Shown: positions 5,264 through 63,812 of the stretch, piece after piece
How positions within the stretch are numbered: the stretch's first letter is position 1
Layout of the letters: every line of letters starts with the position of its first letter
IMG/VR virus record: IMGVR_UViG_3300027913_000117
Coordinates: 5,750 to 69,749 of that record
DNA length: 64,000 bases
Reading direction: 5' to 3' (one strand)
From: a virus
Lineage: Duplodnaviria; Caudoviricetes
Program-made: the position numbers and the translations under genes
Notes under the pieces: model-generated
The model's database searches: none
What the model was told of the DNA's origin: nothing
The model's input: only the letters and a program-made list of their open reading frames with translations

Positions 5264-6244
5264 ATGTCAGATACTTACAAATCGATCTTTGATGAAATAA
5301 TCAAAAATCAACCAGATCAGGCAGGTGAAACGCCCGCTGGTCAACAACCTCAAGTTAATCCAGAACCTCAACCAGAGCCACAGCCGGAACCACAACCCGA
5401 GCCTCAGCCTGAACCAAAACCGGAACCACAACCTGATTCCCAAAACTCCGAGGGGTCTCAGAACCCTAAAGAATGGTATGAGGAAGAGGACACTGATCCA
5501 GAACCAAACCCTGTAGATAAGAATACCCAGAACCCAACTCCGACTCCTACCGCACAAGAGGAAGAAGACGAGGACATTCAATTAATCAAAGAATTTAAAA
5601 AGCAAGGAAAATCACTCAAGGACTTCGTAAAAGAATACAATGTAGTTGATTACAACTCTATGGACGATAAGAAAATCGTCGAACTTGGCTTAAGAGAACT
5701 CGAAGGTTTTTCCGGAGATGAACTCGAAGATGCAAGTGCAGAGATCGAATCAATGTCATTGTTCCAAAAGAAAAAACTAGTACAAGAGTATCGCGCAAAG
5801 TTCAATCAGATTAACGAAGAGAAGTTGAAAAAACTTTCTAGCGTTGAAATCAAACAGAACGATCAGCAAGAGAAGATAGTACAGCGTTTTAATACCGAAC
5901 TTGAAAGTACAGTGAAGACCATTGAAAATCAGGAACGTTATGGCTTAAAGATTACAGACGAAATGTCAAAGTCTTTGCGCAAATACGTGGCTGAAGAAAT
6001 GAACTTCCAAAGACCCGATGGTTCACTTGATGTCGAGGCCCTCCTCGATGTAGCGATCTGGCGCAAATACGGTAAAGATATCGTAAGAGCAAATGTAACC
6101 AGAGCGAAGAATGAGGGACGCGAAGAGATTCTAAGACAAACTACGAATCCTTCAACTGGTATGAATCCTTCAAACGCTACTGCTGGAATGTCCAACGGTA
6201 ACTTTGAGGATGAATTTAACAACTATTTAAAGAATAAAAGATAA
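5264..6244 (+). CDS. putative capsid scaffolding protein
   Basis: 326 aa, acidic, disordered PE/PQ N-terminus, helical C-terminus, immediately upstream of MCP. Confidence 0.65.
   Translation: MSDTYKSIFDEIIKNQPDQAGETPAGQQPQVNPEPQPEPQPEPQPEPQPEPKPEPQPDSQNSEGSQNPKEWYEEEDTDPEPNPVDKNTQNPTPTPTAQEEEDEDIQLIKEFKKQGKSLKDFVKEYNVVDYNSMDDKKIVELGLRELEGFSGDELEDASAEIESMSLFQKKKLVQEYRAKFNQINEEKLKKLSSVEIKQNDQQEKIVQRFNTELESTVKTIENQERYGLKITDEMSKSLRKYVAEEMNFQRPDGSLDVEALLDVAIWRKYGKDIVRANVTRAKNEGREEILRQTTNPSTGMNPSNATAGMSNGNFEDEFNNYLKNKR
5360..5431 (+). repeat. 12-nt coding tandem repeat, (PEPQ)x6-like
   Basis: ccagaacctcaa ccagagccacag ccggaaccacaa cccgagcctcag cctgaaccaaaa ccggaaccacaa. Confidence 0.9.
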
Positions 6245-7587
6245 TGGCTGGAAATGTAACAACCCTTGATATTAGCAAAAGCTTACTATTAAAGGGACTA
6301 TCGTTGCCTAACAAAATGGCGATGGTTTATGCTCAAGACTATGGGTATAACGTATTGACTCAATTGACTTCAAAACTTGGTCCGAGTATTTCTACTCCTC
6401 AAGCAAAAGTTGAAATCAGTTCTATTGGAAATCTTTCTGTGTACTCTGCTGTAACTGCGGTTGCTGCTGGTGGTACTGGAGAGCTTTTAGTTACTGTTGC
6501 AAACTCTGAGAACTTCCGTCCTGGTGATATCATCGCGGACTCTAACTTGGTTCAAGGTATTGTAATCGAAAAAACTGCTACTGCTAACCAATTACGTGTT
6601 AAGAGTGTAACTACCACTTTGAGTTCTTCTTTGCACTTCTTGGCTGGTCATATTGCAAAAGTAATGTTTGACGCATCTGCTAACCGTTTATCTTACGGTA
6701 AGCCTGCATTGAACATCGTGCCTAACACTGACTTCACTTACACTGCTGTAACTCGTGAAAGCTCAACTCAAGCACGTCGTGACCGTATTTCGTCTTTCGT
6801 AAAATGGCAAGGTGACTTCTGGTATCGCTCTTGGGACGATTTAACTTTACGTCGATTCGCTAAGTCTTTGGAATACAAGTATGCTTTCTCTGAGCGTGCT
6901 ATCTTCTCTGGACCTCATGGTGAGACTTACTCAACTGCTGGTTTACGTTGGTCTATCATCAACAACGGTGGTACTTACTTACCATTGACTTCTGAATTGA
7001 CTCAAACTGTGTTCAACGACTTCTTAGAATCTTTGGTTCGTAAGACAGCTGAAAACGGTCGTCGTTTGGTTGCAATGATGGGTTCTGCTGCTATGGCTCG
7101 TTTGCAAACAATCTTAGGTGACTACATCAAGTATGCTGGTACTCAGAATACTTTCGGTGGTGCATCTGTAGAAGGTTTGAACGTAATGACTTACAGCTAT
7201 GCTGGTATGACAATCGAATTCGTTCGTTGGGCTTTATTGGACGACGACATGTGGAAAGTTGAATTGTCAAGCATCACTGGTAAGCCAAAGCAGTCACACT
7301 CCATCTACTTCATGGATATGACTCCATTGCCTGCTGCTGACGGTAGCGGATCTTTGTCTCCATTGCAGAAGTACCACTTCAACAATGACGAGATGATTGC
7401 TAACTACGTACCAGGTATGGTAGGTTTGGAAGATTCTAGTCCTTCTAGCATCAAGCAAACAATCGCTGGCTCTCAATTGGTTTCTTTGGGAACTAATGAT
7501 ACCGACGGTGTTGACTTCCATATCTTGTCTGACTGTGGTCTTTACGTAGCTGCTGACCGTATGGGTCTGATTGAATTAGTACTCTAA
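6244..7587 (+). CDS. major capsid protein
   Basis: 447 aa, strongly biased high-expression codons (GCT, GGT, ACT, CGT), position after scaffold. Confidence 0.8.
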   Translation: MAGNVTTLDISKSLLLKGLSLPNKMAMVYAQDYGYNVLTQLTSKLGPSISTPQAKVEISSIGNLSVYSAVTAVAAGGTGELLVTVANSENFRPGDIIADSNLVQGIVIEKTATANQLRVKSVTTTLSSSLHFLAGHIAKVMFDASANRLSYGKPALNIVPNTDFTYTAVTRESSTQARRDRISSFVKWQGDFWYRSWDDLTLRRFAKSLEYKYAFSERAIFSGPHGETYSTAGLRWSIINNGGTYLPLTSELTQTVFNDFLESLVRKTAENGRRLVAMMGSAAMARLQTILGDYIKYAGTQNTFGGASVEGLNVMTYSYAGMTIEFVRWALLDDDMWKVELSSITGKPKQSHSIYFMDMTPLPAADGSGSLSPLQKYHFNNDEMIANYVPGMVGLEDSSPSSIKQTIAGSQLVSLGTNDTDGVDFHILSDCGLYVAADRMGLIELVL

Positions 7588-7600
7588 TAGATTAAAAGAA

Positions 7601-8374
7601 ATGGAAATCACCGCATTATGGAACGGAAATGGTACAGCTACTACCGCAAACGGTAAGTTGTACATCACTGGTAGTGTAAACAACCAGTTTCCCGGACTTG
7701 ATATTCCTTTGGTAAATAACTTAGTAAAATATGCTGGGACCAACGGAACTTCACGTCAAATCACTATTACTCCTGTTGCTGCAAACAGCACTGAGTATCG
7801 TTTGTCTTTAACATTGTTAAAGAATGAATTGAACGCACCTTTCGGATCAGCAATTGACCAAAAGTTGTTTGTGTTCACTTCTGACGCAACTGCAACCGTA
7901 ACTGAGATCGTTCAAGGTTTGGCTTCTGCAATCGTACCGGGTCTTCCTGAAGCAACTGCTTCTGGTTCATTTGGTGGATTGACAGTTACTAAAACTGGTT
8001 CTACCGGTGCTTGGACTGCTTTTGTTATCACAACCACTGTAACTGCATCTTTCGACATGAAAGCATCTAGTTTAGTAGGTAGCTTGTTAGGTGTTAACAA
8101 CGCAACTGCTAACTTCGTATTGCCTTCAGGTGTTGGTGCTGACTTGGTTGCTCAAGGTATTACTGGTGCTGCTTCCGGAACTTTGTATACCATCTACAAA
8201 GGATTCGCAGGTAAACCTGTAAATGCTGGTTCTGTAACATCTCGTATCGATAACGTACCTGTAACACTTTATTGTGCTGCTGGTTCTGACGTTATTACTG
8301 CGTTGGATGCCTTCATTGCTAATCCGTTGGCTTCTCCTGGTCAGTACGACTTGGATGACACCACTGGAGCTTAA
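7601..8374 (+). CDS. putative auxiliary capsid / decoration protein
   Basis: 257 aa, Ala/Thr/Gly-rich beta-type composition, same codon bias as MCP, co-terminated at 8387. Confidence 0.6.
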   Translation: MEITALWNGNGTATTANGKLYITGSVNNQFPGLDIPLVNNLVKYAGTNGTSRQITITPVAANSTEYRLSLTLLKNELNAPFGSAIDQKLFVFTSDATATVTEIVQGLASAIVPGLPEATASGSFGGLTVTKTGSTGAWTAFVITTTVTASFDMKASSLVGSLLGVNNATANFVLPSGVGADLVAQGITGAASGTLYTIYKGFAGKPVNAGSVTSRIDNVPVTLYCAAGSDVITALDAFIANPLASPGQYDLDDTTGA

Positions 8375-8386
8375 TCCAAATCATAC

Positions 8387-8411
8387 GGGGGTCTCAGGAC
8401 CCCCTTATTTT
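8387..8411 (+). terminator. Rho-independent terminator
   Basis: GGGGGTC-TCAG-GACCCCC followed by TTATTTT. Confidence 0.85.
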
Positions 8412-8431
8412 AATTACAATCAAACTATTAT

Positions 8432-9310
8432 ATGATAAGAAAAATGTTCCTAGACCCTATGTCACCAAAAGGGTCAACTACCTTAACAGGAAGTTACAAA
8501 GACAAACCAACCAGACGAGTATTATTTCTTGTCGATGAAGGAAAGAGAGTAGTAACAGACGAGGAGTCTGAGTACCACAGAGAGTTTAACGTAACCGTTA
8601 CTGACGGTCAACCTTACGTGTTTGAGTATGATGACGAGTCAATTGAAGATTTGGCTGTTATCGACTTCTTTAAAAACCATCCATTATGTCTTTCTGACGG
8701 ATACCAAAACCCTAACTTAGCAGTAGGTAAGTTCCGCGTTAGACTTGAACATGAGAGAATCGAATTGGAAATCTCTAAGTTGGAAAAGAACTTAGAAATT
8801 GCTCTGAAGGTGTTGTCCATGTCTTTTGAAGACAAGTATGATTTGGCTTTCGCTTTGGGAATCAATCCTAAAGGAATGACACATTCAGACCTCATCGTTC
8901 GCTTATTGGGATCTAATTTGTTGGGTGTAGCTGTTGAAGATTCTAAAACCTTTGACATTTTCTACAACTCTATGGATTCCAACAAGAAAGCATTGGTTTA
9001 CGCGAATAAAGCAGTTGCTTTAGGTATCGTATCCAGCGAAGGTGGTTACTACAAAGTAGGCGGTAGAACAATTGGTACTACTATCAAAGACGTGGTTGAT
9101 ACTTGTTTGAGCGATAAAGAATTCTTCTTGGGATTCATCGTTCCTGAAGTAGATAAAAAATACACCACTCCTGCTGAAAAGCAAGACGATTACAAACAAG
9201 TTCCAGAAATCGTAGCGACTGAAATCGAAGCTCGCAGCGAAGAACTGGCTCCAGATCCTAGCGCAGTGTTGGTTGAAAAGAAACCCGCTCCAAGAGGTAG
9301 AAGAAAATAA
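8432..9310 (+). CDS. conserved capsid-module protein of unknown function (292 aa)
   Basis: Long ORF at the position following MCP/aux capsid in crAss-like head modules. Confidence 0.6.
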   Translation: MIRKMFLDPMSPKGSTTLTGSYKDKPTRRVLFLVDEGKRVVTDEESEYHREFNVTVTDGQPYVFEYDDESIEDLAVIDFFKNHPLCLSDGYQNPNLAVGKFRVRLEHERIELEISKLEKNLEIALKVLSMSFEDKYDLAFALGINPKGMTHSDLIVRLLGSNLLGVAVEDSKTFDIFYNSMDSNKKALVYANKAVALGIVSSEGGYYKVGGRTIGTTIKDVVDTCLSDKEFFLGFIVPEVDKKYTTPAEKQDDYKQVPEIVATEIEARSEELAPDPSAVLVEKKPAPRGRRK

Positions 9311-9319
9311 AAAAGAAAG

Positions 9320-9344
9320 TGGGGTCTCCGGACCCCATTATTTT
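9320..9344 (+). terminator. Rho-independent terminator
   Basis: TGGGGTC-TCCG-GACCCCA followed by TTATTTT. Confidence 0.85.
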
Positions 9345-9358
9345 AACTTAGAGAGCCT

Positions 9359-9961: not shown

Positions 9962-9976
9962 AAGAATTTTGGTTGT

Positions 9977-10007
9977 TTTGTAATCACGTAATTTTTTAGT
10001 ATCTTCG
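9977..10007 (+). promoter_or_regulatory. Bacteroidota promoter variant upstream of ring-protein genes
   Basis: TTTG-N19-TATCTTCG. Confidence 0.55.
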
Positions 10008-10011
10008 CATT

Positions 10012-10797
10012 ATGACAGGTGCTGAATTTTACCTACAACTTCAACAAAAGTACGATAAGGCTTATAGTCAATATCTTGACACAACCAAAGCCAATCGTCT
10101 TATTAAGGAAGCCATGTATAGGCTCGTTGATAAGTTGTGCGCTGTTCTCGATACTCAAAAGGAATACGATGAACTAAGCGAGTTGTTGAAGTATGATGTA
10201 AGCAGACCTGTTTCTGGAAGTATTAGTGTACAACCTACTGATTACTACCATCTCACAAGGATGGCTTTTGTTTTTACAAGACAGATTACCTTTGACGCGA
10301 TTGCCGGAACAACTGTGGCAGCAACTAAGCACGGTTTGAGACCTGGTGACAAATTGAGTGAAGTTCTTGATGGTAGCGGTACAATCAGAACTGTTACTTC
10401 TGTGAGTAAAAGCGGCTTTAAAGTAGACAGTACGTTTCTACCCGGAACCGTAGGTATTTACCAAGTTTTGACATTTGAAGCGAGTCCTAGTACTTCTGAT
10501 AAAAAGCAACCTGCTCTTTCTAAAGCAACTAATGAAAATCCTAAATATTGGACGGGGGTCTCAGGAACCGACAGAGTATTCCACTTGGCTCCGCAACCCA
10601 AGTCAATTATTATCGATTACGTTACTGTTCCTCCAGTCAATATTGACGTATCTAATAGCTCAACTCTATTAACCGATACCTATACTCAAAAGTTCTTATA
10701 TCGATTGATGGACGAATGTGTTTATTCTGTAGCTACTGAAACCAGAGACTATCAAAATAAACAATCAACCGCACAAACAATAATTGACAATCCGTAA
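10012..10797 (+). CDS. head-tail ring / adaptor protein
   Basis: 261 aa; first of three translationally coupled 160-260 aa genes preceding the muzzle gene. Confidence 0.55.
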   Translation: MTGAEFYLQLQQKYDKAYSQYLDTTKANRLIKEAMYRLVDKLCAVLDTQKEYDELSELLKYDVSRPVSGSISVQPTDYYHLTRMAFVFTRQITFDAIAGTTVAATKHGLRPGDKLSEVLDGSGTIRTVTSVSKSGFKVDSTFLPGTVGIYQVLTFEASPSTSDKKQPALSKATNENPKYWTGVSGTDRVFHLAPQPKSIIIDYVTVPPVNIDVSNSSTLLTDTYTQKFLYRLMDECVYSVATETRDYQNKQSTAQTIIDNP

Positions 10798-11938: not shown

Positions 11939-14900
11939 TGCAAGTAAGAGTTACACCAAACGGAATATTAGATAAGGATACTGAAGTTTCTTACGTAGGA
12001 AAAGGAAACTATACTGACGGATTAAATATTCGCCATCGCGGAGTTGATTCCAATGGAAATGACTTCGGTGGTGTTGTTGCAGTAAAGGGTAATACATTAA
12101 GTGTAACTCTTCCAAACTATTCTCCAGAGACTCAGACCTATCGTGTTTATATCGATGTTGAAGATATTTTCAATGGATCGTCTGGTGGACCGTTAGCTAA
12201 TATTTATGTTGAAAATTCAGCCGGTGTCAGATTCTCAAAATTAAATGTCAACTACGGATCCGCAAATCTTTCAGCAGCAGTTTCGGTAGTTCAGTCTGAC
12301 CTTAATTACTTGGCTAATTTGTTGTTTGGTGGAACATTTACGTTTTCAGCAACCACAGTTACTAAGATAATTTCAGCAACCGACATTGCTGGATATTTTG
12401 ACGTTACAACTTCTGCAGTAAATTCGTTTACTTTAATTGTTGACAACGTAACCGGTGTGTATGCTGATTTCAAAAAGACACGTGAATATCACAACCAATC
12501 AGGATCTTTCGAAATTGTAGGTTCTATTCAGTTAGATGACGATATGTTTGTTTTCTTAGCCGGTGACGACAAGAATGCAGATGGCTCATCTATCATTTCA
12601 GAGATTGGAAATATCTACCCTTCTGGTTCCGGGTATACTTACACAAAGTTGTTGCGGTCTCAGAAACTAAGATTCCATACCGAGAGAAAGCACGATACTC
12701 AAATAGAAAGAGTAGGTGACCAAATAAACATCTACACTACAGATAACTTCACATCACCGAAAGTAATTTATATCGACGAGTCAAAGAAAAGAACAACTGA
12801 TGGATTGCTTTTTTCAAACAATGGCCGATATGACTTAGACACAATAGGAATAGAAATGAGTCTGTTCTTAAATGTTGAATCTGCGTATATCGGTGACATC
12901 GAAGTGTTGGAAGGAGACGGTAACGTAAAGGCGGGCAACAAAAGATACATAGGACGATTCTTAACTGAAGACTTAGTCCCTACTGATTTCTTGTATCCTA
13001 CCAACATAATAAACATTTACGGAGAGAGTCCTTCTCGTCCATTTAAGATATTCGGAAACCCCACAGACTTTGTAACCAACAAGGCTGTTAAGATGAACGT
13101 GAAGAACATCACACCTGGTATTTTCAAGTACTTTGAATTGGGCGTGATTGAGTACGCAGGAACAACATTCACAGCTAAGATTGTTCAAAGATTCCCTGTT
13201 GGAGAAAACGATAATGAAATCGAAGTAAGACACGACGAACGTGGACAAGATAATATTCAATTATCCACAGAAGAACTTATTGCTGCAACCCAGAAGTACG
13301 CGAAGTCGAAAAACTTAAGACTTTACGACGGAAGATTGACATTGAGTAATTTAACCACTCAGGAAGACATCGATATTTCCGGCTGGGCTCAGACAATCGG
13401 ACACTCTATTGAGCAAGACTTCATAGACGGTGTTGGTCAAGCATTCAGTTTCCCTACGGACTTAACCAATGCAGAAGCAGGATATAAGTTCGGCGAGTAT
13501 CAGGATCCACAAAACACACTTAACAAGTTAGGGTATTTCTACAACGACACGTATCGTTTCGGTATTCAAGTACAATGGAAAGATACAGGTAAATGGAGTT
13601 CTCCTTTTTGGGTTGACGATATTCGTATTGATGCTTTAACATACAATATTTATAGTGGTGGTAGTGCTTACGATAGAAGAGAACCTTCCATTGGCGGTGT
13701 GGATACAAACTTACAAGACTCTAACGGAAGGACCAAGGTTTATTATGTTAAGTTCAGAAATATCGACTTAACTAAAGATAAAGACGGATTGAATGTTGGA
13801 ACTAAAATGAGAGAGTTGATCTCTGGTTTTAGATTTGTAAGAAGTGAACGCATACCTGAAGTATTAGCTACCGGTATGTTCTTTGCTGGTTATGAACCTG
13901 CATTCGGTAGAACTACACCTGCACCGCTGGCTCCTTTTTTTGGTTTGACTAAACCAACTCATTGGAAGAATGAAGGTGATTATTTAACTACATCTCAATC
14001 TCTTGCTGTTGCTTACGATACAGGCTCGGGTATAATAAATTTAGCAAACTCTGGAGGTGGTTCTGGAGCAACTGATAATTCAAACTATGTATTTTTCTAT
14101 AGTCCGGATTTTTATTTAAACAATCTGACTTATGAGTATTCTTCTTCTGATTCTGTTAAATTATTAGCAACTCCTACTTATAGGTTGATGAGTAGCGGAT
14201 TCTCGCAAGCAAAACAGTTGAGTATTTCTGGAGGATCCGGGAATCATTCTGCTTTTCAAGAATATAGTGGTAATTTTAGTTTAACTACACAAGAGTATAC
14301 AAATATCGCAATAACCCATTCTGCTACATTACTTAATGAAGATGTGGTTAGTTTGGATTCAAAAAATATAGCGAACGCTTTTGATTATTATTATACAACG
14401 GGGGGCTCAACAAGTGTCTATTTAACCGCTAAAAATACACCAGCGATTGCATTTAAACTATCAAGTAAGGCTCACGGTAACACAGCTGTTGTAGATAAAG
14501 GTTATTGGTATGGTCAACTATTTAGAAACTTAGGAGCTAACAGAAAGTACCCAGCCAATAAAGAACTGAGTTCTTACGGCTCTACTGGGCACATTTATTT
14601 TATACCTGAAGGATTGGATAGTTTATCTGAAGTTTCTATCTTCGGTGGAGATTGTTTTACACAAAAAACAATTATACCAATGACAAGGCTTTCTCATAAT
14701 TCTGATCTCAGAGGTGGGGGATACGGTATTTCTTTTTATTCTCAGAATAAAAGTAACACTCAAATGTTCACTGTTCAGGATCACAATAACGAGTTCGCAG
14801 GTCCTGGTTATATTTTTCCACAATACTTAGATAAATCTGGACAAAATGGATCCTCGTTCCTTTCTAACCCAAACTACCTATCTGGGGCATATATTGGTCA

Positions 14901-51265: not shown

Positions 51266-51470
51266 TTATCTTGTTTTCAATTATGTCGTACAAATTATCA
51301 ATGTTATCCTCAAGATGTTGGAGCCTAACCTCTGCATCAACAACTCTGTCGAAATTTTGGTGGGGGTCTCCGATCGGAATAATCCTGATATTAGCCCTCT
51401 GAGTAACATTAACACTATAATGATTAAGACCATCATAGTAAGAGGTACGATAAAATGTATGATTTGACAT
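51258..51470 (-). CDS. hypothetical protein
   Basis: 70 aa. Confidence 0.6.
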   Translation of the reverse strand: MSNHTFYRTSYYDGLNHYSVNVTQRANIRIIPIGDPHQNFDRVVDAEVRLQHLEDNIDNLYDIIENKINE

Positions 51471-53454: not shown

Positions 53455-53976
53455 TTATTTGAAACTTTTGATAAGTTCGACGTATCCTCCCGCAGAAGCA
53501 TATCTCCCGTCTATGTTTTTAAGATATCTGTTTTGAATGTGGGTGTAACATTTTATATTGTCTCTATAAGAATGGTAGGTTGCGTGATCGTTCAACTCTC
53601 CTTTTACGTATTTGCATTTGTGGTATTTGATTCCTGCTAGATTTTTATTCTCTTTACAAACTTTGGATTGGTAATGAGATGACTCGATTTTAAACTGAGC
53701 AAGTGCAACACCGGGTAGAACACACCCTTCTTTGACTAACTCTCGAAGAATTGCGCTGTCGTTTAATGCAACGTCTGATTTGTCGATGATGAGTGTGTCG
53801 CGTGTCATAACCTGGATGATTGATCTTGGTCGTGTTAAACTTGTATACAAAGTTAATGACAATAAAATATTTAATGTCACACTAATGTAAATTAATTTCT
53901 TTAACCTCATGATGGGTTTTATCTTTCGGATCTGAGACCCCTGAAAGATTTGTAAGTCTTTGTCTATCAGTAACAT
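53455..53976 (-). CDS. GH73 glucosaminidase-like hydrolase with N-terminal membrane anchor
   Basis: LAQFKIES.......ENKNLAGIK...Y.SY.....Y..RYA....Y; hydrophobic LIYISVTLNILLSLTLY; likely start ATG 53910. Confidence 0.7.
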   Translation of the reverse strand: MLLIDKDLQIFQGSQIRKIKPIMRLKKLIYISVTLNILLSLTLYTSLTRPRSIIQVMTRDTLIIDKSDVALNDSAILRELVKEGCVLPGVALAQFKIESSHYQSKVCKENKNLAGIKYHKCKYVKGELNDHATYHSYRDNIKCYTHIQNRYLKNIDGRYASAGGYVELIKSFK

Positions 53977-55324: not shown

Positions 55325-56029
55325 TTAATGTTCAAAGATAAGGATTGATTTCTGACCTTTACCTAGTATCCCACTACATAAGCCACACTTATTACATGAT
55401 GACTTATATCCCATTTCTTTGGAAGCAGGACAACTAATGATGTCAGAAGTTTTGGGGGTGTCAGAACCCCCCACTAAAAATGATCTGTACTCTGGAGCCA
55501 ACTCATCAGTAGAGTGAACACTCGCCATAAAGTAATTCAAATACTCTGGCTTCTTTCTAAACTGATGTGTATAACCGGTCCACGACTTAGCTCTACTACA
55601 AATCAATTTAACGAGTGCATAACTCAATAACGATGGCTCCCCATACGAACCAAAACGAACAAATCTTCCCTCACACATTTTGAGGATGTCAACATACATT
55701 CTCCAGTTGTGATCCGGAATGTCGTCAAACGTGTTGTACGTCTTACCAATAGAGCGAAGCTGACTGAGAAACCCACTGTATTGGATGTAACTATGGGTAT
55801 AACAGCCACCGTTTGCTCTCGATGACATCGGACAATCCATACACACTGGCTCATCATGAGAGAAGAATTCTTTCTGAGTAGTCTTCCGTTGTGCGACCTC
55901 GAACTGACCGCGTGAGTAGTGCCAGGTTTGTACAACACGTTCTCCATTAGAGATTTTCGAATTGGTTGTCTTTGATAGACCGATCACTGTCAGTACATCT
56001 CCCTGTTTGAATACAATTCTTCTTCTCAT
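55325..56029 (-). CDS. Cys-rich putative Fe-S/Zn protein (gp88-like)
   Basis: CMDCP...GCY, RFGSYGEP, WTGYTH, CPA...SCNKCGLC; 234 aa. Confidence 0.6.
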   Translation of the reverse strand: MRRRIVFKQGDVLTVIGLSKTTNSKISNGERVVQTWHYSRGQFEVAQRKTTQKEFFSHDEPVCMDCPMSSRANGGCYTHSYIQYSGFLSQLRSIGKTYNTFDDIPDHNWRMYVDILKMCEGRFVRFGSYGEPSLLSYALVKLICSRAKSWTGYTHQFRKKPEYLNYFMASVHSTDELAPEYRSFLVGGSDTPKTSDIISCPASKEMGYKSSCNKCGLCSGILGKGQKSILIFEH

Positions 56030-56944: not shown

Positions 56945-57622
56945 TTAATTTTTGTCGGGGGTTTCAGAATCTTCTTCTTCTCCATATAAGATAGAACTTA
57001 TCTCATCAGAACTATAAGTAATAGATGTATCTTCATAATCAACAGCAACTATATCGTCATACTCTAAACGATCTCTAAACTCATATTCGTCTTCGTACTC
57101 CTGAAGATACTCATGGATGAGACAATCTTCTCGTGTCTTGAATAATTTAGCATTGGTATATCCACCACGTGCATCACATCCCTGATGTATCTGCAAAAGT
57201 AGGTATTGTTCTCCGAATATTTCTAACCATTCACCCTGTAGGATCTGAGATAGGTCCGAATCTCCATTATATGTGTTGAATACACGTCCCCATACTATCT
57301 CGTGATTGTCTTCTAGGAATTCTTGCTGTGCTTTAGATATACCGCAATGCTCGCTGTCCCAATCCTCACAAGGCATTGAGTTGAATTGATCGCATAGATC
57401 GTCGAGTTCCAAGCCACTCAAGTAGTGAAACACGGATACTCTTCGGTCCATCCATTTGCCGTTTTTGTGCAGAATGTACTCTTCTTCTGGCTCGTTTTCG
57501 AAGTCCTGAATTGATTTCTTTTGATTGCGCTCCCAATGGCGACCATAAATGCCACCGCTGTCACAGATATGAGCACCGGTTGATTCTGTGAGCATTTGAT
57601 AAATAAGTTCTTTTGTTTTCAT
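56945..57622 (-). CDS. hypothetical acidic protein
   Basis: 225 aa; ESTG..ICDSGG.YGRHWE...NTYN.DSDLSQ.LQ...HQGCDARGGY. Confidence 0.8.
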   Translation of the reverse strand: MKTKELIYQMLTESTGAHICDSGGIYGRHWERNQKKSIQDFENEPEEEYILHKNGKWMDRRVSVFHYLSGLELDDLCDQFNSMPCEDWDSEHCGISKAQQEFLEDNHEIVWGRVFNTYNGDSDLSQILQGEWLEIFGEQYLLLQIHQGCDARGGYTNAKLFKTREDCLIHEYLQEYEDEYEFRDRLEYDDIVAVDYEDTSITYSSDEISSILYGEEEDSETPDKN

Positions 57623-58181: not shown

Positions 58182-58202
58182 AGTTTTTAATTTTCGGTAG
58201 TT

Positions 58203-58433
58203 TTATTTAATATTTTCTAAAGGATAGGCGTTGAAAATTGATTGTTTATTTAATTCAAAATCGTAAAATTCCAACATATCAATTTCAGCATGTTCCGATG
58301 CTGCTTCTAATGCTGCTTGAACATGAAGTTTAGCAAACTCAATCATTATATGTTCAACATCTCTCTGATCCATGCTTTCTAGATTTTCATACATGAATTC
58401 TTCTGCTGTTGGTATTTTATTTTCTTTGTTCAT
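58203..58433 (-). CDS. hypothetical protein
   Basis: 76 aa; IEFAKLHVQAALEAA motif. Confidence 0.75.
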   Translation of the reverse strand: MNKENKIPTAEEFMYENLESMDQRDVEHIMIEFAKLHVQAALEAASEHAEIDMLEFYDFELNKQSIFNAYPLENIK

Positions 58434-58439
58434 GACTTA

Positions 58440-58781
58440 TTATTTATGGTCGATATGACTTAGACACATTATGTACCAATTTAAAAATTGATTGATTGCC
58501 TCTACTACTGCTTCTTTTTTGGAACCTCTCTTGATAGAACCTAACTCCATACTTGTTTTTCCATAGGTTTGTTCAATTACACAAGTATTTTTTCCAATCA
58601 AAACAACTATATCCATGTCCTCAATGGCTTCAACTACTTCCATGATCCAGGTCCAATCGGAATGGTACTGCATGGATTCAAGCGTACCTGCTTTTTTCAG
58701 GTCCTGTTCCAAAACTTCTGGCTCTGTTGTACAAAATAACGCACAGCGTCTGTTGTACTCTAAAATTTCTTGTTGTGTCAT
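58440..58781 (-). CDS. hypothetical protein
   Basis: 113 aa; YHSDW.WIM.VVE.IE motif. Confidence 0.75.
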   Translation of the reverse strand: MTQQEILEYNRRCALFCTTEPEVLEQDLKKAGTLESMQYHSDWTWIMEVVEAIEDMDIVVLIGKNTCVIEQTYGKTSMELGSIKRGSKKEAVVEAINQFLNWYIMCLSHIDHK

Positions 58782-59272
58782 TTGTTACCTCCTTGTAAAT
58801 AATTTTTAATTCTTTGTATCCATTTAAAATAATCTTGGGCGTGTTGATTATCTCCGTGAGTTTCTTTCACTTTTGCTTCAAAATCTAATAAACTACCTTG
58901 AAAACATCCACATACTATTTGCTCGTGTTCATCGGTAAAATAATAAGTTGAATTAGAATGTCGGCTACCAATTTTACGGGATGTAATCCTTTCTGGGTTT
59001 GTCTTAAAACCACTGCAAGAACGGCAATAACTGCAATAACTGCAATCACTGCAATAACTGCAATCACTGCAAGAACTGCAATCACTGCAATCACTGCAAG
59101 AACGGCAAGAACGGCAAGAACTGCAATAACTGCAATTTATACAGTTAGTACAATTAATTAGTGTATCTGCATACTTTTCCGCTTGTTCTTTTGTGTAAAT
59201 TAATGAATCCCATTTATTTGTTTCAATCACCCAATATCCATCGAGTAATTGTGCTTGTTTCTTGTTGCTCAT
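58778..59272 (-). CDS. (Cys-X-X)16 repeat protein with C-terminal CGCF domain
   Basis: CTNCINCSYCSS...CSG followed by IGSR....Y...IVCGCFQG...TH. Confidence 0.75.
   Translation of the reverse strand: MSNKKQAQLLDGYWVIETNKWDSLIYTKEQAEKYADTLINCTNCINCSYCSSCRSCRSCSDCSDCSSCSDCSYCSDCSYCSYCRSCSGFKTNPERITSRKIGSRHSNSTYYFTDEHEQIVCGCFQGSLLDFEAKVKETHGDNQHAQDYFKWIQRIKNYLQGGNK
59012..59137. repeat. 9-nt coding tandem repeat (14 near-identical units)
   Basis: ac(t/g)gcaa(ta/tc/ga) units. Confidence 0.9.
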
Positions 59273-59285
59273 TTGTTATCTCCTT

Positions 59286-59573
59286 TTAGTTTAAGTATTT
59301 TTTAATTTCTTCGATTACTTCCCACAATGTGTTGAAAGCATAAATGTCTTGATTGATTTTCATTAGGTAATTGTCTTCGCCTTCTTCATAACCAAATGGA
59401 AGGTAAAGCACGAACCGGAAGTCGTTGTCGATGAGTGTGCAGTACAACGAAGGTCTGCCGTCGTTTACATAAGTGACGTTGTCGACCTCGATAGAAAATT
59501 CGTATTCGAGAATTGATGACACAAGTTCTACGTTTTGTTTCCAATAGAACTCTTTAATTTCAGGATAGTTCAT
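59286..59573 (-). CDS. hypothetical protein
   Basis: 95 aa. Confidence 0.7.
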   Translation of the reverse strand: MNYPEIKEFYWKQNVELVSSILEYEFSIEVDNVTYVNDGRPSLYCTLIDNDFRFVLYLPFGYEEGEDNYLMKINQDIYAFNTLWEVIEEIKKYLN

Positions 59574-59757
59574 AATTTTTTGTTTTCCAAATGATTAAAT
59601 GTTTGCCACCACGAGGACCATAATGAATATGTTCGTATCGTTGTAGTTTCTCGTTAAAGTAGAGTTCACCTTGAACCCAAAACATCTGTCCTTTAAAATA
59701 ATAATCAAAGTACCCACTTCGTAGGTTCATTGATTCGCCATTAATAAGTTTAGCCAT
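59560..59757 (-). CDS. hypothetical protein
   Basis: 65 aa; GPRGG motif. Confidence 0.65.
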   Translation of the reverse strand: MAKLINGESMNLRSGYFDYYFKGQMFWVQGELYFNEKLQRYEHIHYGPRGGKHLIIWKTKNYELS

Positions 59758-59772
59758 AGGTTTTATATTTTA

Positions 59773-59791
59773 GTGGGGGTCTCAGAACCCA
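59773..59791 (+). repeat. dispersed GTGGGGGTCTCAGAACCCA element at gene junction
   Basis: Contains the TGA stop of ORF 59782-60192; near-identical copies at 61422, 63011, 63794. Confidence 0.9.
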
Positions 59792-60192
59792 ATGTCATTA
59801 GTCCAAACATCTCCCAATTCATCAAAACGTTTAATAGAAAGTAAATACTTACTCTTATCATAGTAAGGAATCTTAAAGGGAACAACATTAACATACTTCA
59901 TCTCAGATCTCTTGAGTGCATTATACCGGATGATATCCGCTTGTCTCCTGGTCTCACACTGAATGATGAGTTTGTTTATCTTACCCTCAGCACATCCCCA
60001 ACCAGACATAAATCTATCTGTCATAGTAACGTACCAATAGTCTTGCTGAACTTTTTCTATTGCGGACTCAGGACATGATTCAGAATTACAAATCATTTCT
60101 ACGGCTCCCGAGTAATTAGGTGCATACACTGAGATAGTCTTTCTACCTTTGTCGTGTTTGACTGTTACTGAATACTTTTTTGAATTGTACAT
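59782..60192 (-). CDS. hypothetical protein
   Basis: 136 aa; YVTMTDRFMSGWG.A.GKINK motif. Confidence 0.75.
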   Translation of the reverse strand: MYNSKKYSVTVKHDKGRKTISVYAPNYSGAVEMICNSESCPESAIEKVQQDYWYVTMTDRFMSGWGCAEGKINKLIIQCETRRQADIIRYNALKRSEMKYVNVVPFKIPYYDKSKYLLSIKRFDELGDVWTNDIGF

Positions 60193-60196
60193 GATT

Positions 60197-60853
60197 TTAT
60201 TTAAGTGTTGTTAAATATGCTATGTGTGCTCTTATTACTGCTTCTATTTGCTTAAATTCTGGTGTGTTACGTGGGGTTTCAATCACCTCATCTGAATTTA
60301 AAAACGCTTCCCATTCTTCGATTGTTTTTACTTTACAACCTATTTTAATTTTGCCGTCAATTATTCCGTGAGACCATTTGCAATACATTGGTAATATTGC
60401 ACTTCTTAGGTTTGCACCGCTTAGGTTTGCATCGCTTAGGTTTGCATCGCTTAGGTTTGCACTTCTTAGGTCTGCACTTCTTAGGTTTGCACCGCTTAGG
60501 TTTGCATCGCTTAGGTTTGCATCGCTTAGGTTTGCATCGCTTAGGTTTGCATCGCTTAGGTTTGCACTTCTTAGGTCTGCACTTCTTAGGTTTGCACCGC
60601 TTAGGTTTGCATCGCTTAGGTTTGCATCGCTTAGGTTTGCACTTCTTAGGTTTGCATAGATTAGGTCTGCTCCGATTAGGTTTGCACCGCTTAAGATTGC
60701 GTCGATTAGGTCTGCACCTCTTAGGTTGGCTCCGCTTAGCTTTGCATCGCTTAGGTTTGCACCGCTTAGGTCTGCACGTTGCCCACCTTCTTCTTCTTCA
60801 TTTAACCACATGTTATGCAGTTTTAAAATTTCGTCAAGTTTTAGTTTTTCCAT
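60197..60853 (-). CDS. pentapeptide repeat protein (A[D/N]Lxx) with C-terminal IGC domain
   Basis: About 25 ANLSD/ANLRS/ADLRS units, then KIGC..KTIEEW. Confidence 0.9.
   Translation of the reverse strand: MEKLKLDEILKLHNMWLNEEEEGGQRADLSGANLSDAKLSGANLRGADLIDAILSGANLIGADLIYANLRSANLSDANLSDANLSGANLRSADLRSANLSDANLSDANLSDANLSDANLSGANLRSADLRSANLSDANLSDANLSGANLRSAILPMYCKWSHGIIDGKIKIGCKVKTIEEWEAFLNSDEVIETPRNTPEFKQIEAVIRAHIAYLTTLK
60405..60775. repeat. 15-nt coding tandem repeat with higher-order duplication
   Basis: gcttaggtttgcatc / tcttaggtttgcact / gcttaggtttgcacc units. Confidence 0.9.
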
Positions 60854-60856
60854 GAT

Positions 60857-61402
60857 TTAAAAAGCTAAGTGTGAATAAACATTATTGAGTTGTTCCATAT
60901 CTTTTTTGTGCCAGTGGGTTATTGTTTGAATACCGTCCTCTAGGGCTTCTTCTAATGAGAAAAATCCAGAACAATTATCTAAGCATTCGTTGGTTGTGTT
61001 GTCAAAGATATCAACGCGGTAAACCTCCCCGTTAAGATAGGCTGTGTATTCTTCGAGTACGTATTCAATAGAACTGTCAACATCACCGTAGTCGTTCGGA
61101 TCATTAACACAAGCGAATCCGACTTGTCCGCTATCCCAACGGTCACCGAAAGGTTTAGTACTTAGAGTCACACCTGAATGATCATACATATACACAGGTA
61201 CGACGTAGTTAAAATCTCGGTGTAGGTCTTCAACAAGTTCGCCCCAAGAATTATAATTTTCTTTGAAATAGTCTTTACAATTACCTAAGTTGTAACGTTT
61301 ATGAAACATTACAAACTTGATGTCTGAATCCTCGATTGGATTGAACGGATAATGGTCAATGTTCGCTTCAACGCGGTAATGACCGATAGTTTCGTGTAAC
61401 AT
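60857..61402 (-). CDS. hypothetical protein
   Basis: 181 aa; PVYMYDHSG..LST.PF.DRWDSGQVG...Y..YLNGEVY. Confidence 0.8.
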   Translation of the reverse strand: MLHETIGHYRVEANIDHYPFNPIEDSDIKFVMFHKRYNLGNCKDYFKENYNSWGELVEDLHRDFNYVVPVYMYDHSGVTLSTKPFGDRWDSGQVGFACVNDPNDYGDVDSSIEYVLEEYTAYLNGEVYRVDIFDNTTNECLDNCSGFFSLEEALEDGIQTITHWHKKDMEQLNNVYSHLAF

Positions 61403-61421
61403 AATTTTATTTTAATTTTTA

Positions 61422-61440
61422 GCGGGGGTCTCAGAACCCA
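61422..61440 (+). repeat. dispersed GCGGGGGTCTCAGAACCCA element at gene junction
   Basis: Contains the TGA stop of ORF 61431-61751. Confidence 0.9.
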
Positions 61441-61751
61441 CCATGTTTAAACATTTCATCAAATAACTCATTAGGTAACTGATACCCATAGTGTAAAGTA
61501 CTATGATAAAAGAACGGTCTATAATCTCCTTGCTCATCCATCATATCATCTGTCTCATAAAAGTCAGAGGTAAAAGCCACACGTTCGTCGGGGAACACTA
61601 CGACTACAAAATCTTCATCCCCATAAATAGGGTGTTCATAGAACTCAACACGTTGACCCATTTCGTTGGTCATTTCGTCATAAAGAGTTAGATTGTGATC
61701 CATCAATTTATGAAAGTATTTTTCTGCGGGTGACATTACTTTAATATTCAA
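61431..61751 (-). CDS. hypothetical acidic protein
   Basis: 106 aa; FYEHP.YGDE. Confidence 0.75.
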   Translation of the reverse strand: MNIKVMSPAEKYFHKLMDHNLTLYDEMTNEMGQRVEFYEHPIYGDEDFVVVVFPDERVAFTSDFYETDDMMDEQGDYRPFFYHSTLHYGYQLPNELFDEMFKHGGF

Positions 61752-62496
61752 TTACTTCTGTGATGTAGTCTACGCATTTTTCTGCTAAAAATACTGTATA
61801 ATTACCATTTTGATGAAAGGTTATGTAGTTCCTATCTACACAATACTTGTAAAACTGTCTATCGTTATGAATACAATGTTCTGTCTTATAATATATGATA
61901 TCGACTGGTTCGTTTGTATTTATATTTTCAATTCCAGAACAATGTTGACCTGTATATTTAATCAGTACTATAGAGCCTGTCTTTAATTTGTCGTAGTCGA
62001 TTTCTTTTTTCTTTTCGCCAAAGATTTTAGTAAGTACTGGCTTTTGATCTGATGTTGCTGCTGCGAACATTGTGTCAATTTCATCTTCGGTAAAAGTTAT
62101 CTCTTGTTCGTTGTTCATTCTGACTAGGTAGTTTGTTTTGATTTTCCTTTTCCATCCAACACATGCTACATTATGTATCTCTAATACATCTGTAATTGGT
62201 ACTGTTAATTTGTATCCCATAGTTTTTTCTGTTTGTTTTTCTGCTTTAATTCCACAATACTCTAAAAAGGTGTCTTGGTTCCACTCGTCAAAGGCTGTTC
62301 TACCATAGAAATTTTTTGAATCAAGACTAACATTGGAAACTAAGCCAACTTCTTCACCTACATTATTTACCAAGTATGGTGTATACACGAAGTTAGTAAT
62401 TTGATGCACTCTTAATCCGTTTTCTTCTAAAGTTGGTCTGATTGCTTCGAACTGCTCTTCCGTGCACTTCATAGCGATTGGTTTGATGTTTTTCAT
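61741..62496 (-). CDS. hypothetical protein, apparently multi-domain
   Basis: 251 aa; IAMKC..EQF N-terminal module. Confidence 0.75.
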   Translation of the reverse strand: MKNIKPIAMKCTEEQFEAIRPTLEENGLRVHQITNFVYTPYLVNNVGEEVGLVSNVSLDSKNFYGRTAFDEWNQDTFLEYCGIKAEKQTEKTMGYKLTVPITDVLEIHNVACVGWKRKIKTNYLVRMNNEQEITFTEDEIDTMFAAATSDQKPVLTKIFGEKKKEIDYDKLKTGSIVLIKYTGQHCSGIENINTNEPVDIIYYKTEHCIHNDRQFYKYCVDRNYITFHQNGNYTVFLAEKCVDYITEVIEY

Positions 62497-62524
62497 AATC
62501 GTTTATTTTAATTATTTATTTTGA

Positions 62525-62743
62525 TTACTTATCGTATTTACTTATGGTCATTATTGCGAACGCGATGAGTGTGCCAAAAACAAAAAAGATTGTTGTTGGG
62601 CCTGCTTGAATTAGTTGCTTGAAAGTTGCGTCACTAAACAAGGACACAAAAAAAACAAAAACAGCGATTACAATTGCAACCGCTAAAACCGATAACACAG
62701 CCATAGAAACGACTGTGAATGTGTGAAGAATAGTTTTATACAT
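62525..62743 (-). CDS. small two-TM membrane protein
   Basis: 72 aa, two long hydrophobic stretches. Confidence 0.7.
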   Translation of the reverse strand: MYKTILHTFTVVSMAVLSVLAVAIVIAVFVFFVSLFSDATFKQLIQAGPTTIFFVFGTLIAFAIMTISKYDK

Positions 62744-62755
62744 AATTTTTAATGT

Positions 62756-63004
62756 TTAAGCTAAAAGCCATTGTTGATAAATATAGTCATAAGGTACATT
62801 GATTACTTCTGACAGTCTTTTGAATAGTCGTTCACGAACTATTGAGTCATACACTCCAACATAGTCGTAAACGTCCCTGTAATTATCGAGTGTATCAAAT
62901 AGTCCCTCGAATGTAACGTCAGGATATATTTCGGTCCCGAGTTCGTCATTTGGGAAAGCAATGAGATAATATTCTCGGAGAGATTGTTCTAATTCTTTTT
63001 TCAT
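62756..63004 (-). CDS. hypothetical protein
   Basis: 82 aa; DSIVRERLF..LS......YDYIY..WL. Confidence 0.75.
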   Translation of the reverse strand: MKKELEQSLREYYLIAFPNDELGTEIYPDVTFEGLFDTLDNYRDVYDYVGVYDSIVRERLFKRLSEVINVPYDYIYQQWLLA

Positions 63005-63010
63005 AATTTA

Positions 63011-63027
63011 GTGGGGGTTTCAGAACC
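63011..63027 (+). repeat. dispersed GTGGGGGTTTCAGAACC element at gene junction
   Basis: Between TAG at 63027 and ATG at 63004. Confidence 0.85.
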
Positions 63028-63185
63028 TACCTAGATAAAAAATCAAATCCTCTATATCCTAATCTTACTAGGGATGTACATACACCATTAGAGGAACGAC
63101 CAGAACGTTTACGAGCATTCTCAATCCGTTGTTGTTTCTTTGCGTCAAATAATGACTTGTCTGTGGTTAAAATAATTTGAGCCAT
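63027..63185 (-). CDS. small basic hypothetical protein (52 aa, MAQIILTTDKSLFDAKK...)
   Basis: Manually translated, A-rich leader, below ORF-track length cutoff. Confidence 0.55.
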   Translation of the reverse strand: MAQIILTTDKSLFDAKKQQRIENARKRSGRSSNGVCTSLVRLGYRGFDFLSR

Positions 63186-63793
63186 AATATTTAGTTTTTA
63201 ATTGTTGTTAGTGGGATAGGGTGAATTCGCTTCATACATTCATAAAAATGTCCCTACCCCGATGGTAAAGTAGTTAGTGTAGTTGAGCCGTCAACTTTTA
63301 AGCATTGGACAAAGTGCACACTAATAAATAGAATTATCGGTATAAATATATACCGAAGTTGTGGTAATTTCGTAGCAGTATTTTGATAGTAAACGTGTTT
63401 GTCTAAAGGTGTAACGTTGCACCACCGCACACAAGTATTCACACGGAATAAATGTGCCTACCAAGGACGGGATTGATTATACCCGCCTCTCTCAAATAAA
63501 GAGGTTGCCCTGCTTGGCTAACAATTGCCCCATAATGCTCGCGTCGATTCGTCGAGACAGTTGTACGATGTACATCGGTGTGGACTGGCTATGTAGTTCT
63601 ACAAACTTGTAATGTAATTTACCGCCCCGAATTGATTAGGATTGATAACGTCGGAATAATTCCGCACTTCGCACAGCCATTGTGCTATTTACAGTTTATC
63701 GGTGTGTATGCACCGTGTGTATTGAGCCAAGTATTGAACGGCATAAGTTGGCTTAAAATATGCGGAAACAATACAGGGATAACCCCAAAAGTA

Positions 63794-63812
63794 GTGGGGG
63801 TCTCAGAACCCA
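63794..63812 (+). repeat. dispersed GTGGGGGTCTCAGAACCCA element in non-coding region
   Basis: 19/19 identical to 59773-59791. Confidence 0.9.

Follow-up and report, generated by a model that had tools for sequence, protein, structure and literature searches.

What signal is carried by a word that recurs throughout the genes of an uncultured phage, and what might read it? GGGG(T/C)CTCAG(A) occurs in genes about every 2.5 kb in a family of uncultured ~70-kb crAss-like phages, defined by its family A DNA polymerase. In the window (the whole stretch of DNA analysed, 64 kb of the genome G000), exact GGGGTCTCAG is found ten times on the plus strand and once on the minus strand, at 53932, against 0.05 copies expected from dinucleotide shuffles. 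A preliminary description had placed these copies correctly, and the enrichment that it claimed holds. Allowing up to one mismatch to GGGGTCTCAG, the window contains 27 copies against 1.6 expected, with a plus:minus ratio of 23:4; across the whole 69.7-kb genome the ratio is 23:6. Overall, the 8-11-nt word is enriched at least 100-fold in the phage. The near-copies listed earlier are real variants, but four were overlooked (12654, 42898, 16080 and 24743), and the GC content, estimated at ~36%, is 38% when computed. The copies are as follows.

5452-5461, plus strand: exact GGGGTCTCAG, sense in a plus-strand gene, read as E-G-S-Q-N
8388-8397, plus strand: exact copy, 5' arm of a perfect hairpin with a T-run, terminator-like, 3' of gene 7601-8374
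9321-9330, plus strand: one-mismatch GGGGTCTCCG, in a second terminator-like palindrome, 3' of gene 8432-9310
10555-10564, plus strand: exact copy, sense, read as G-V-S-G-T
12654-12663, plus strand: one-mismatch GCGGTCTCAG, within a 1402-aa gene
15096-15105, plus strand: exact copy, within the 1402-aa gene
16080-16089, plus strand: variant GGGGCTTCAG(AAAC)
16789-16798, plus strand: one-mismatch GGGGCCTCAG
20984-20993, plus strand: one-mismatch GGGGCCTCAG, in the giant 3262-aa gene, position common to the relative G001
22882-22891, plus strand: variant GGGGCTTCAG(AACC), in the giant gene
24743-24752, plus strand: variant GGGGAGTCAG(AAT), in the giant gene
28450-28459, plus strand: one-mismatch GGGGTCTCCG
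28665-28674, plus strand: exact copy, R-G-L-R-D frame
29467-29476, plus strand: one-mismatch GGGGACTCAG
33671-33680, plus strand: exact copy
34175-34184, plus strand: exact copy, 10 nt short of the end of its gene
41689-41698, plus strand: one-mismatch copy, antisense in a metallophosphoesterase gene
42898-42907, plus strand: one-mismatch copy, antisense in a ribonucleotide reductase gene
47399-47408, plus strand: one-mismatch copy, antisense in the DNA polymerase gene
51363-51372, plus strand: one-mismatch copy, antisense in a 70-aa gene
55455-55464, plus strand: one-mismatch GGGGTGTCAG, antisense
56958-56967, plus strand: one-mismatch GGGGTTTCAG, antisense at the 3' end of a gene
59776-59785, plus strand: exact copy at an early-gene junction, its complement giving the TGA stop of minus gene 59782-60192; the next ATG is 18 nt further on
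61425-61434, plus strand: exact copy at an early-gene junction, giving minus gene 61431-61736 its TGA stop and lying 8 nt from a break in a strain variant
63014-63023, plus strand: one-mismatch copy between minus genes 63027-63185 and 62756-63004
63797-63806, plus strand: exact copy inside a noncoding gap, ~200 nt from the contig end
53932-53941, minus strand: the sole exact minus copy, sense in gene 53455-53976
44656-44665, minus strand: one-mismatch copy in the reductase gene, position common to G001
46843-46852, minus strand: one-mismatch copy in the DNA polymerase gene
49414-49423, minus strand: variant GGGGGATCAG in the primase-helicase gene
1620-1629, minus strand: one-mismatch copy, intergenic, in the arm of reversed polarity (arc 1, below); two further minus copies of this arm, at genome positions 1577 and 3057, precede the window

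Selection was proposed earlier to act on DNA and not on protein or mRNA. The word is indeed read in all three frames, and in both coding senses as well. Shuffling synonymous codons left 2.7 of the ten exact plus copies, mostly intergenic ones that had not been shuffled, so the enrichment of coding copies vanishes; they are likewise lost in G001, G004 and G012, indicating that selection acts on DNA. All four gene/strand classes are enriched 6- to 13-fold among 16 genomes. The sequence is present in independent assemblies and in four sequencing runs, which disposes of an assembly artefact.

The word is also a family trait. Among k-mers that are enriched and strand-biased it ranks first or nearly so in most of 15 relatives, at DNA-polymerase identities as low as 40%, answering the earlier question of whether related phages carry the same motif; it is weaker, and outranked by others, in five genomes (G005-G009) of the ~51% clade. 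The family consensus is G-n-K-GGGG-Y-C-TCAG-A with a core of GGYCTCAG. Common forms include GGGGCCTCAG and GGGG-NN-TCAG variants, G and T predominate in the 5' flank, and GGGTC or GGTC occurs in 60% of sites; GTC is dispensable and TCAG invariant. Genomes at ~65% amino-acid identity share the position of only 10-20% of sites, so what is maintained is density and not location. The codon shuffle, the use of every frame, the family-wide conservation and the fast positional turnover support the view that the word is an oriented, DNA-level cis signal and not a protein or mRNA feature.

Orientation along the genome further defines this signal. Two regions mark switches of polarity.

2311-2995, no strand: point D, a divergent region between the portal gene and a leftward tRNA/small-gene block
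63186-64000, no strand: right part of noncoding gap N, ~1.7 kb in all and continuing at genome positions 1-865; second polarity switch

Counts with a strict pattern in 13 genomes give plus:minus ratios of 7:24 from N to D (arc 1, the short block left of the divergent promoter region), 124:25 from D to C (arc 2, across the structural genes) and 66:32 from C to N (arc 3). GGGGYCTCAG alone gives 0:5, 29:0 and 14:3, respectively. Arcs 1 and 3 are both blocks of minus-strand genes, yet their polarities differ (Fisher p=1.8e-5). Within arc 3, polarity is strongest beside the 1-2-kb noncoding gap (29:2 in the last quarter) and is lost over the replication genes (37:30), where both orientations are ~7-fold enriched. 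With respect to genes, arcs 1 and 2 have the word in sense orientation, and the early region has it in antisense. By these counts, polarity is independent of transcription and flips at D, and the word points outward along two arms from one internal point, which may be an origin region. At third codon positions, G exceeds C on the plus strand from C to N although plus is the antisense strand there, a skew compatible with rightward forks.

The preliminary description held that polarity is kept in both transcribed halves of this genome. This is true of the plus-gene half (13:0). Minus-gene DNA stands at 10:6 overall, which divides into 6:0 for the last 8.5 kb, 4:3 for the replication genes and, reversed, 0:3 for the 8 kb to the left of the portal gene. 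The strand bias persists over the full genome but is not uniform, being reversed in one arm; both the reversal and the loss over replication genes had gone unremarked. The genome possibly ends in N. One run's contig extends 930 nt beyond the G000 contig end, and N is collinear with internal DNA of G001; the contig ends are presumed, not proven, to be genome termini.

Two replication genes are relevant here.

47997-49682, minus strand: candidate reader of the word, a gp4-like primase-helicase (561 aa) whose N terminus bears a zinc ribbon, CPKC...CHHC
45774-47657, minus strand: family A DNA polymerase

The primase-helicase matches T7 gp4 (E 4e-17), with Toprim and DnaB regions and a Cys4-type zinc ribbon, and is a core gene, with orthologs in 14 of 15 relatives. 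Given the two-arm polarity and this enzyme, a primase site fits best among the candidates named earlier. We tentatively propose, at rather less than even confidence, that the phage's own T7 gp4-type primase-helicase, which we infer to be the reader, uses the word as a preferred site of lagging-strand priming. Replication would start at or near D and proceed outward both ways, and the enzyme would read the word on single-stranded template. Because the helicase moves 5' to 3' on the lagging-strand template, the usable sites to the right of D would be those on the plus strand, and to its left those on the minus strand. The G-run would be copied into a C-rich primer, and the invariant TCAG(A) on the 3' side would act as a flanking recognition element. 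Since so long a word (8-11 nt) is rare by chance, selection would have to keep writing copies into genes. The enrichment, DNA-level selection, family-wide conservation, turnover, two-arm polarity and enzyme gene all support this reading.

Several observations pull against priming. Classical DnaG/gp4 primases recognise three bases only, and in T7 itself the pentanucleotides show neither enrichment nor polarity, so the phage primase would have to be unusually stringent. GTC is not required in the word. The 37:30 ratio over the replication genes would demand additional origins or forks in both directions. Spacing shows no significant regularity, gaps of 7-13 kb occur between strong sites, and third-position GC skew does not flip in the short arm.

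The word might instead mark sites of a phage-encoded site-specific nickase, whose cuts would leave virion DNA with localised single-strand interruptions like those of T5, phiKMV-like phages and Pseudomonas phage tf. Phage tf is the closest described phenomenon by overall look (PMC3517423), an information content of 8-11 nt or more is typical of nickase sites, and exact copies are nearly strand-exclusive (plus:minus 10:1, 7:0, 7:0 and 5:0 in G000, G001, G004 and G010). This reading is nevertheless unlikely: known nick systems are confined to a single strand, whereas here one arm is reversed and the replication genes are enriched in both orientations. The genome has no Pfam match to HNH and no other nickase candidate, its only nuclease-like hits being a NinG/Rap-like protein and a YqaJ/RecE-like exonuclease. 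Across four runs contigs do not break at word sites, though this is a weak test, and sites turn over fast here, in contrast to the tf group, whose positions are reported to be similar.

A Chi-like signal, also named earlier, is a possible but doubtful reading. Such a word would attenuate a helicase-nuclease, whether host AddAB or an enzyme of the phage, as it enters at DNA ends or broken forks, protecting the linear phage genome and promoting recombination. Its G-richness and its frequency, roughly one copy per 2.5 kb, are like those of Chi. If the genome ends in N, the copies nearest each end face it with their 3' side (7:24 in arc 1; 29:2 in the last quarter of arc 3), and one lies ~200 nt from a contig end. 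No Chi has been assigned for Bacteroidota AddAB (PMC2887965). In seven Bacteroidota plasmids totalling 1.34 Mb, GGYCTCAG is not over-represented (15 copies against 38 of the reversed-word control) and is at least 30-fold sparser than in the phage; these plasmids represent Bacteroidales, Cytophagales and Saprospirales, and the host may belong to another order, such as Flavobacteriales, Chitinophagales or Sphingobacteriales. The consensus, with 11 or more informative positions and a clade-specific 5' flank, exceeds any known Chi, AddAB types having Chi of 5-7 nt. Strong polarity deep in the structural block, 30-60 kb from the presumed ends, is unexpected for end protection. The phage also has its own YqaJ/RecE-like exonuclease, and phages with their own recombination systems tend to lean less on host Chi.

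It is improbable that the word serves a phage DNA-binding regulator or origin-type protein (stoperator- or DnaA-box-like) or forms early-region promoter elements for a phage-directed RNA polymerase. Dispersed, asymmetric 13-mers act as stoperators in cluster A mycobacteriophages, and a gene for a DnaA domain-IV protein adjoins the polymerase gene in one relative. Early-gene junctions coincide exactly with four of the best extended copies, and each of these has an A/T-rich stretch and, 8-25 nt downstream on the minus strand, the next ATG; the right-most copy (63797-63806) lies between TTG and a TAnnTTTG box, the box directly adjoining it on the minus strand. Orientation, however, is not tied to transcription, most copies lie inside long conserved genes, and the fast turnover speaks against gene-specific regulation. 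For a promoter, moreover, the DFDxD polymerase motif is missing from the giant virion protein, and the genome yielded no RNA polymerase elsewhere. A pause or guide sequence for a motor during one-way packaging or ejection is very improbable: the plus strand dominates over ~60 kb, but any one-way process should give one polarity from end to end, contrary to both the reversed arm and the unpolarised replication-gene region, and we know of no precedent for such a word. A nucleoid-protein site, the remaining early candidate, would predict no polarity.

Known systems share parts of this pattern. Phage tf has two convergent gene arms and 14 copies of a 9-nt word, every one on the same strand, and its relatives show variant words and similar positions (PMC3517423). 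Nick sites in tf/LUZ24-like, T5 and phiKMV-like phages likewise combine a dispersed 9-20-nt word, tens of copies and strong strand bias with convergent gene arms and a word common to relatives (PMC3517423). Their sites keep to one strand throughout, whereas both strands are enriched mid-genome here; no nickase gene was found, and nicks in the present family are hypothetical. Chi resembles the word in being oriented, G-rich, over-represented and spaced by kilobases, and the word's orientation would suit nuclease entry at ends or collapsed forks; unlike Chi, the word has a longer consensus and is conserved with the phage family, not over-represented in the sampled Bacteroidota replicons. The NrS-1 primase-polymerase, which recognises the 8-nt template 5'-TTTGGTTA-3', is a precedent for a phage primase recognising far more than three bases (PMC8718748), although this enzyme is AEP-type, with no relation to gp4-type primases, and later work narrowed its specificity to GTGG/GTGA. 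In T7, gp4 binding requires a G/T-rich pentanucleotide, (G/T)2GTC, and a 10-nt 3' flank; 14-26 active priming sites lie 1-6 kb apart, and the minus strand is expected to carry the sites left of the origin, the plus strand those to its right (PMC12839067). The T7 word is short, unenriched and unpolar, whereas the present word is long and enriched, with TCAG invariant in place of GTC, and priming by it is putative. As in T7, a gp4-type enzyme with zinc ribbon, Toprim and DnaB-like helicase is encoded, most copies have a G/T-rich 5' part holding GGGTC or GGTC and a 3' flank that matters, and a few dozen sites lie kilobases apart, at a mean spacing of 2.4-3.7 kb, on opposite strands either side of an internal point ~12% from one presumed end, compared with ~15% for the T7 origin.

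The oriented DNA word carried by this genome is real, selected, and shared across its phage family. The window has ten plus-strand copies and a single minus-strand copy (53932) of its exact 10-nt form, GGGGTCTCAG, against 0.05 copies expected from dinucleotide-preserving shuffles; a recount confirms each of these sites as listed in the preliminary description. With one mismatch allowed, the window holds 23 plus and 4 minus copies (1.6 expected) and the whole 69,749-bp record, of which the window covers bases 5750-69749, holds 23 plus and 6 minus, so the plus excess persists over the full genome. The near-copies reported earlier are genuine variants, but four further variants had been overlooked. 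Apart from a 15-bp tandem repeat, no 10-mer is more enriched than this word when an order-3 Markov model sets the expectation.

Gene mapping bears out the earlier observation that the word is read in all three frames, and extends it to both coding senses and to intergenic DNA. When synonymous codons are shuffled within genes, the ten exact plus copies fall to 2.7, essentially the intergenic ones. Because the copies use every frame and sense and the enrichment of coding copies is gone after this shuffle, selection acts on the DNA, as had been proposed, and not on protein or codon usage. Codon or amino-acid bias is ruled out as the cause by the same codon-preserving null, which the observed enrichment exceeds. 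Assembly artefact is likewise ruled out, since the same word occurs in 15 independently assembled relatives and contigs from four runs, drawn from two studies, align to the window with 90-100% identity. A hairpin is ruled out as a conserved feature: GGGG pairs with a downstream CCC(C) in only some copies of the genome studied and never in relatives.

The relatives, 15 in number, were fetched in full or large part via polymerase homologues, which turn up often in metagenomes, in many cases on contigs of 62-72 kb. In most of them the same word is among the top enriched, strand-biased k-mers; G005-G009, five members of the ~51% clade, show it less strongly and are led by other words. A logo from 69 GGGGNNTCAG sites in five closer-clade genomes reads G-n-K-GGGG-Y-C-T-C-A-G-A, with a core, GGYCTCAG, of 8 nt, some 11 informative positions, and a tolerated 2-nt centre. 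The clade at ~41% polymerase identity has the G-run reduced to TTGGG or TCGG and retains GGTCTCAG(A), and some ~51%-clade genomes loosen the central YC to NN. Only 10-20% of sites share a position between two genomes at ~65% protein identity, and the mean density is about one site per 2.4-3.7 kb; the density of sites is maintained, particular positions are not. Regular spacing is not significant (CV 0.65-1.03, against ~0.93 for random placement). Some relatives, though not the genome studied, are also enriched in a second, strongly strand-biased word, a small hairpin (up to 11:1):

Relatives G003, G005, G007 and G009, loci L094-L105, L128-L130 and L139-L143: hairpin word CAACC-AAA/TTT-GGTTG

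The record is rated a complete IMG/VR virus contig and occurs mainly in wastewater metagenomes. It encodes a large terminase, ribonucleotide reductase, thymidylate synthase, family A DNA polymerase, and gp4-like primase-helicase. Its portal is only 21% identical to Crassvirales portals, and no close relatives were found among GenBank phages (polymerase identity at most 35%). The presence of TAnnTTTG boxes, which resemble promoters, suggests that the host belongs to the Bacteroidota; a scan of a genome-contig collection gave no host clue. The circular map has a single divergence point, D (window 2311-2995), between the portal gene and a leftward block of tRNA and small genes, and a single convergence point, C, between the tail genes and the terminase. 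A noncoding gap of 1-2 kb, N, lies within the minus-gene block and holds the contig ends of the genome studied. Other features are as follows.

Window 18497-28285: giant structural-block protein, 3262 aa (3048-4160 aa in relatives)
Window 50004-50690: serine recombinase (resolvase/invertase type), 228 aa, 78% identity in relative G001
Locus L158:2851-3849 (in genome coordinates; immediately upstream of the window): YqaJ/RecE-like recombination exonuclease, in the short arm of reversed polarity
Window 60388-60855: tandem repeat, 15-bp unit CGCTTAGGTTTGCAT (consensus) repeated ~30 times, within minus ORF 60197-60853
Window 8387-8404: hairpin of the word, GGGGTCTCAG/GACCCC, T-run after
Window 9318-9339: hairpin of the word, GGGGTCTCCGGACCCC, T-run after

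Searches of Pfam, PHROG and PDB gave no match for the giant protein, which carries an invariant, zincin-like HExxH near residue 2055; the DFDxD motif of crAss-like virion RNA polymerases is absent from it (five relatives checked). The serine recombinase gene sits in an otherwise lytic-looking genome. The exonuclease gene adjoins conserved small genes, one of which may encode an annealing protein. The tRNA, tRNA-like elements, and structured RNAs of the preliminary description (window 459-2914) fall in the reversed-polarity arm beside D. Both hairpins built from the word are terminator-like and stand 3' of abundant structural genes. The tandem repeat encodes a 5-residue protein repeat, and contigs from all runs break there. 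The early region (window 58300-63900) is strain-variable, with whole small genes skipped or replaced in co-occurring and lake strains; one strain break (61417) is 8 nt away from a copy at a gene junction, which hints at a role of such copies as recombination linkers. Among assembled contigs from the four runs, breaks coincide with the tandem repeat and with strain-variable places instead of with the word. Contig depth drops from 71 to 28 toward the right end of the window, most likely through strain heterogeneity, and a contig from run X1 (region window 63246-64000) extends 930 nt past the last base.

The word's orientation describes two arms that diverge from D, with the sharpest polarity close to N. 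Against synonymous shuffles in 16 genomes, the word is enriched 13.4-fold in sense and 5.9-fold in antisense within plus genes, and within minus genes 6.9-fold on the plus strand and 7.6-fold on the minus strand. With each map divided at the three points N, D, and C, the distribution is as follows.

Copies of the strict word pattern by arc, 13 genomes (plus:minus)
Arc 1, N to D (short arm): 7:24
Arc 2, D to C (structural block): 124:25
Arc 3, C to N: 66:32

Arcs 1 and 3 differ in polarity (p=1.8e-5) though both are minus-gene blocks, and GGGGYCTCAG alone gives 0:5, 29:0, and 14:3 in arcs 1, 2, and 3. Within arc 3, no polarity is seen (37:30) in the three quarters that contain the genes for packaging and replication, and the quarter adjoining N stands at 29:2. 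The word is sense in arcs 1 and 2 and antisense in the early region, so its orientation is independent of transcription. The earlier claim of one polarity in both transcribed halves thus holds for the overall plus excess but fails in arc 1, which is reversed, and in the middle of arc 3. In arc 3, third-codon-position GC skew favours G over C on the plus strand, the antisense strand there, which offers a slight, independent hint; in the short arm the skew is too noisy to read.

The best explanation, a tentative one, is that the word may mark lagging-strand priming sites of the phage primase-helicase. This protein matches PHROG primase/helicase (E 2e-95) and T7 gp4 chains (E 4e-17), bears an N-terminal CPKC...CHHC zinc-binding motif, and is a core gene, with orthologs in 14 of the 15 relatives. 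Word and primase-helicase co-occur across the family, leaving no phyletic contrast by which to pick the word's reader. In most copies a G/T-rich flank precedes GGGTC or GGTC, and an invariant 3' TCAG-A follows; T at logo position 5, giving GGGTC, occurs in 41 of the 69 family sites (C, A, or G being tolerated), N-T-C at positions 6-8 is invariant, and some clades accept any NN at the centre. T7 gp4 binding requires (G/T)2GTC and a 10-nt 3' flank, and T7 has 14-26 active priming sites at intervals of 1-6 kb; those to the left of its origin use the minus strand and those to the right the plus strand (PMC12839067). Replication generates orientations that diverge from a single internal point. The helicase in a gp4-type replisome travels 5'->3' along the lagging-strand template, which places priming sites in just this arrangement, and the polarity flip at D (arc 1 against arcs 2 and 3) would be expected if D holds the origin. 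Divergent orientation, a gp4-type enzyme, the GGGTC/GGTC core, and the 3' element together make lagging-strand priming the preferred reading.

A fuller version, somewhat more tentative still, is that a DnaG/gp4-type primase-helicase uses a long (8-11 nt) recognition word and that the orientation of the priming grid reveals origin, forks, and probably ends. If so, the unusually long word would account for a selected, fast-evolving grid of sites. T7's own short sites are neither enriched nor polar in the T7 genome, and the priming reading thus requires a primase of unusual stringency. Other points also weigh against priming: GTC is dispensable in the word, the middle of arc 3 would need forks in both directions, the origin at D and the ends in N are putative, and the contig ends are putative termini past which the X1 contig reads. 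In one relative the DNA polymerase gene is directly followed by a gene for a 166-aa protein (L147:3851-4351) that carries domain IV, the C-terminal DNA-binding domain of DnaA; no counterpart is seen at the same position in the genome studied.

Localised nick sites of the T5, tf, and phiKMV type are an unlikely source of the pattern. Phage tf is the nearest described look-alike, but nick sites stay on one strand throughout, whereas here the strands are mixed over the genome (23:6), over the replication genes of the family (37:30), and through the reversal of arc 1. A search for a nickase candidate in the genome found none, and a Pfam HNH search gave no match.

A Chi-like signal is similarly improbable. 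The Chi of Bacteroidota AddAB is unknown (PMC2887965), and the word's orientation fits such a signal if the genome ends lie in N. However, polarity is strong far from those presumed ends, the consensus is long and clade-variable, and the phage has its own YqaJ/RecE-like exonuclease. In the seven Bacteroidota plasmids sampled (1.34 Mb) the word is not enriched, with 15 copies against 38 control copies.

Regulator or promoter sites, stoperator-like or of phage RNA polymerase type, are less probable again: they match four early-junction copies but fit no others, and stoperator-like sites sit poorly with an orientation that runs against transcription in the early region (29:2) and along with it in the structural block. 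No phage RNA polymerase was found to read such promoters, and promoters of a virion RNA polymerase are rejected, since no such polymerase was found and DFDxD is missing from the giant protein in all of five relatives. The packaging or ejection signal raised in the preliminary description is very improbable, since the reversed arm (7:24) contradicts a one-way signal.

Textbook primase recognition involves three bases. If the word is a priming signal, a gp4-type primase could have far higher stringency, and origins and fork directions of uncultured phages would be readable from sequence. A Chi-like word would instead be a pointer to the Chi of Bacteroidota AddAB, and nick sites would extend an unexplained feature to crAss-like phages. 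In any case, the word is a cheap, specific family marker and a defined oligonucleotide substrate for replication proteins.

To our knowledge, an oriented word with this two-arm layout has not been described in crAss-like phages. The tf nick-site system keeps to a single strand throughout, unlike the word, which lies on both. Chi sites are short contiguous words of 5-8 nt, a length that the 8-nt core here would fit and the logo, with its ~11 informative positions and tolerated 2-nt centre, would exceed. T7 gp4 is of the same enzyme type; its strand layout would correspond if D holds the origin, and most copies of the word, though not all, contain a GTC like that of its site. The T7 sites are short, unenriched, and unpolarised, in contrast to the long, enriched, and polar word found here. 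For long recognition the NrS-1 primase provides a precedent, but from a different enzyme class.
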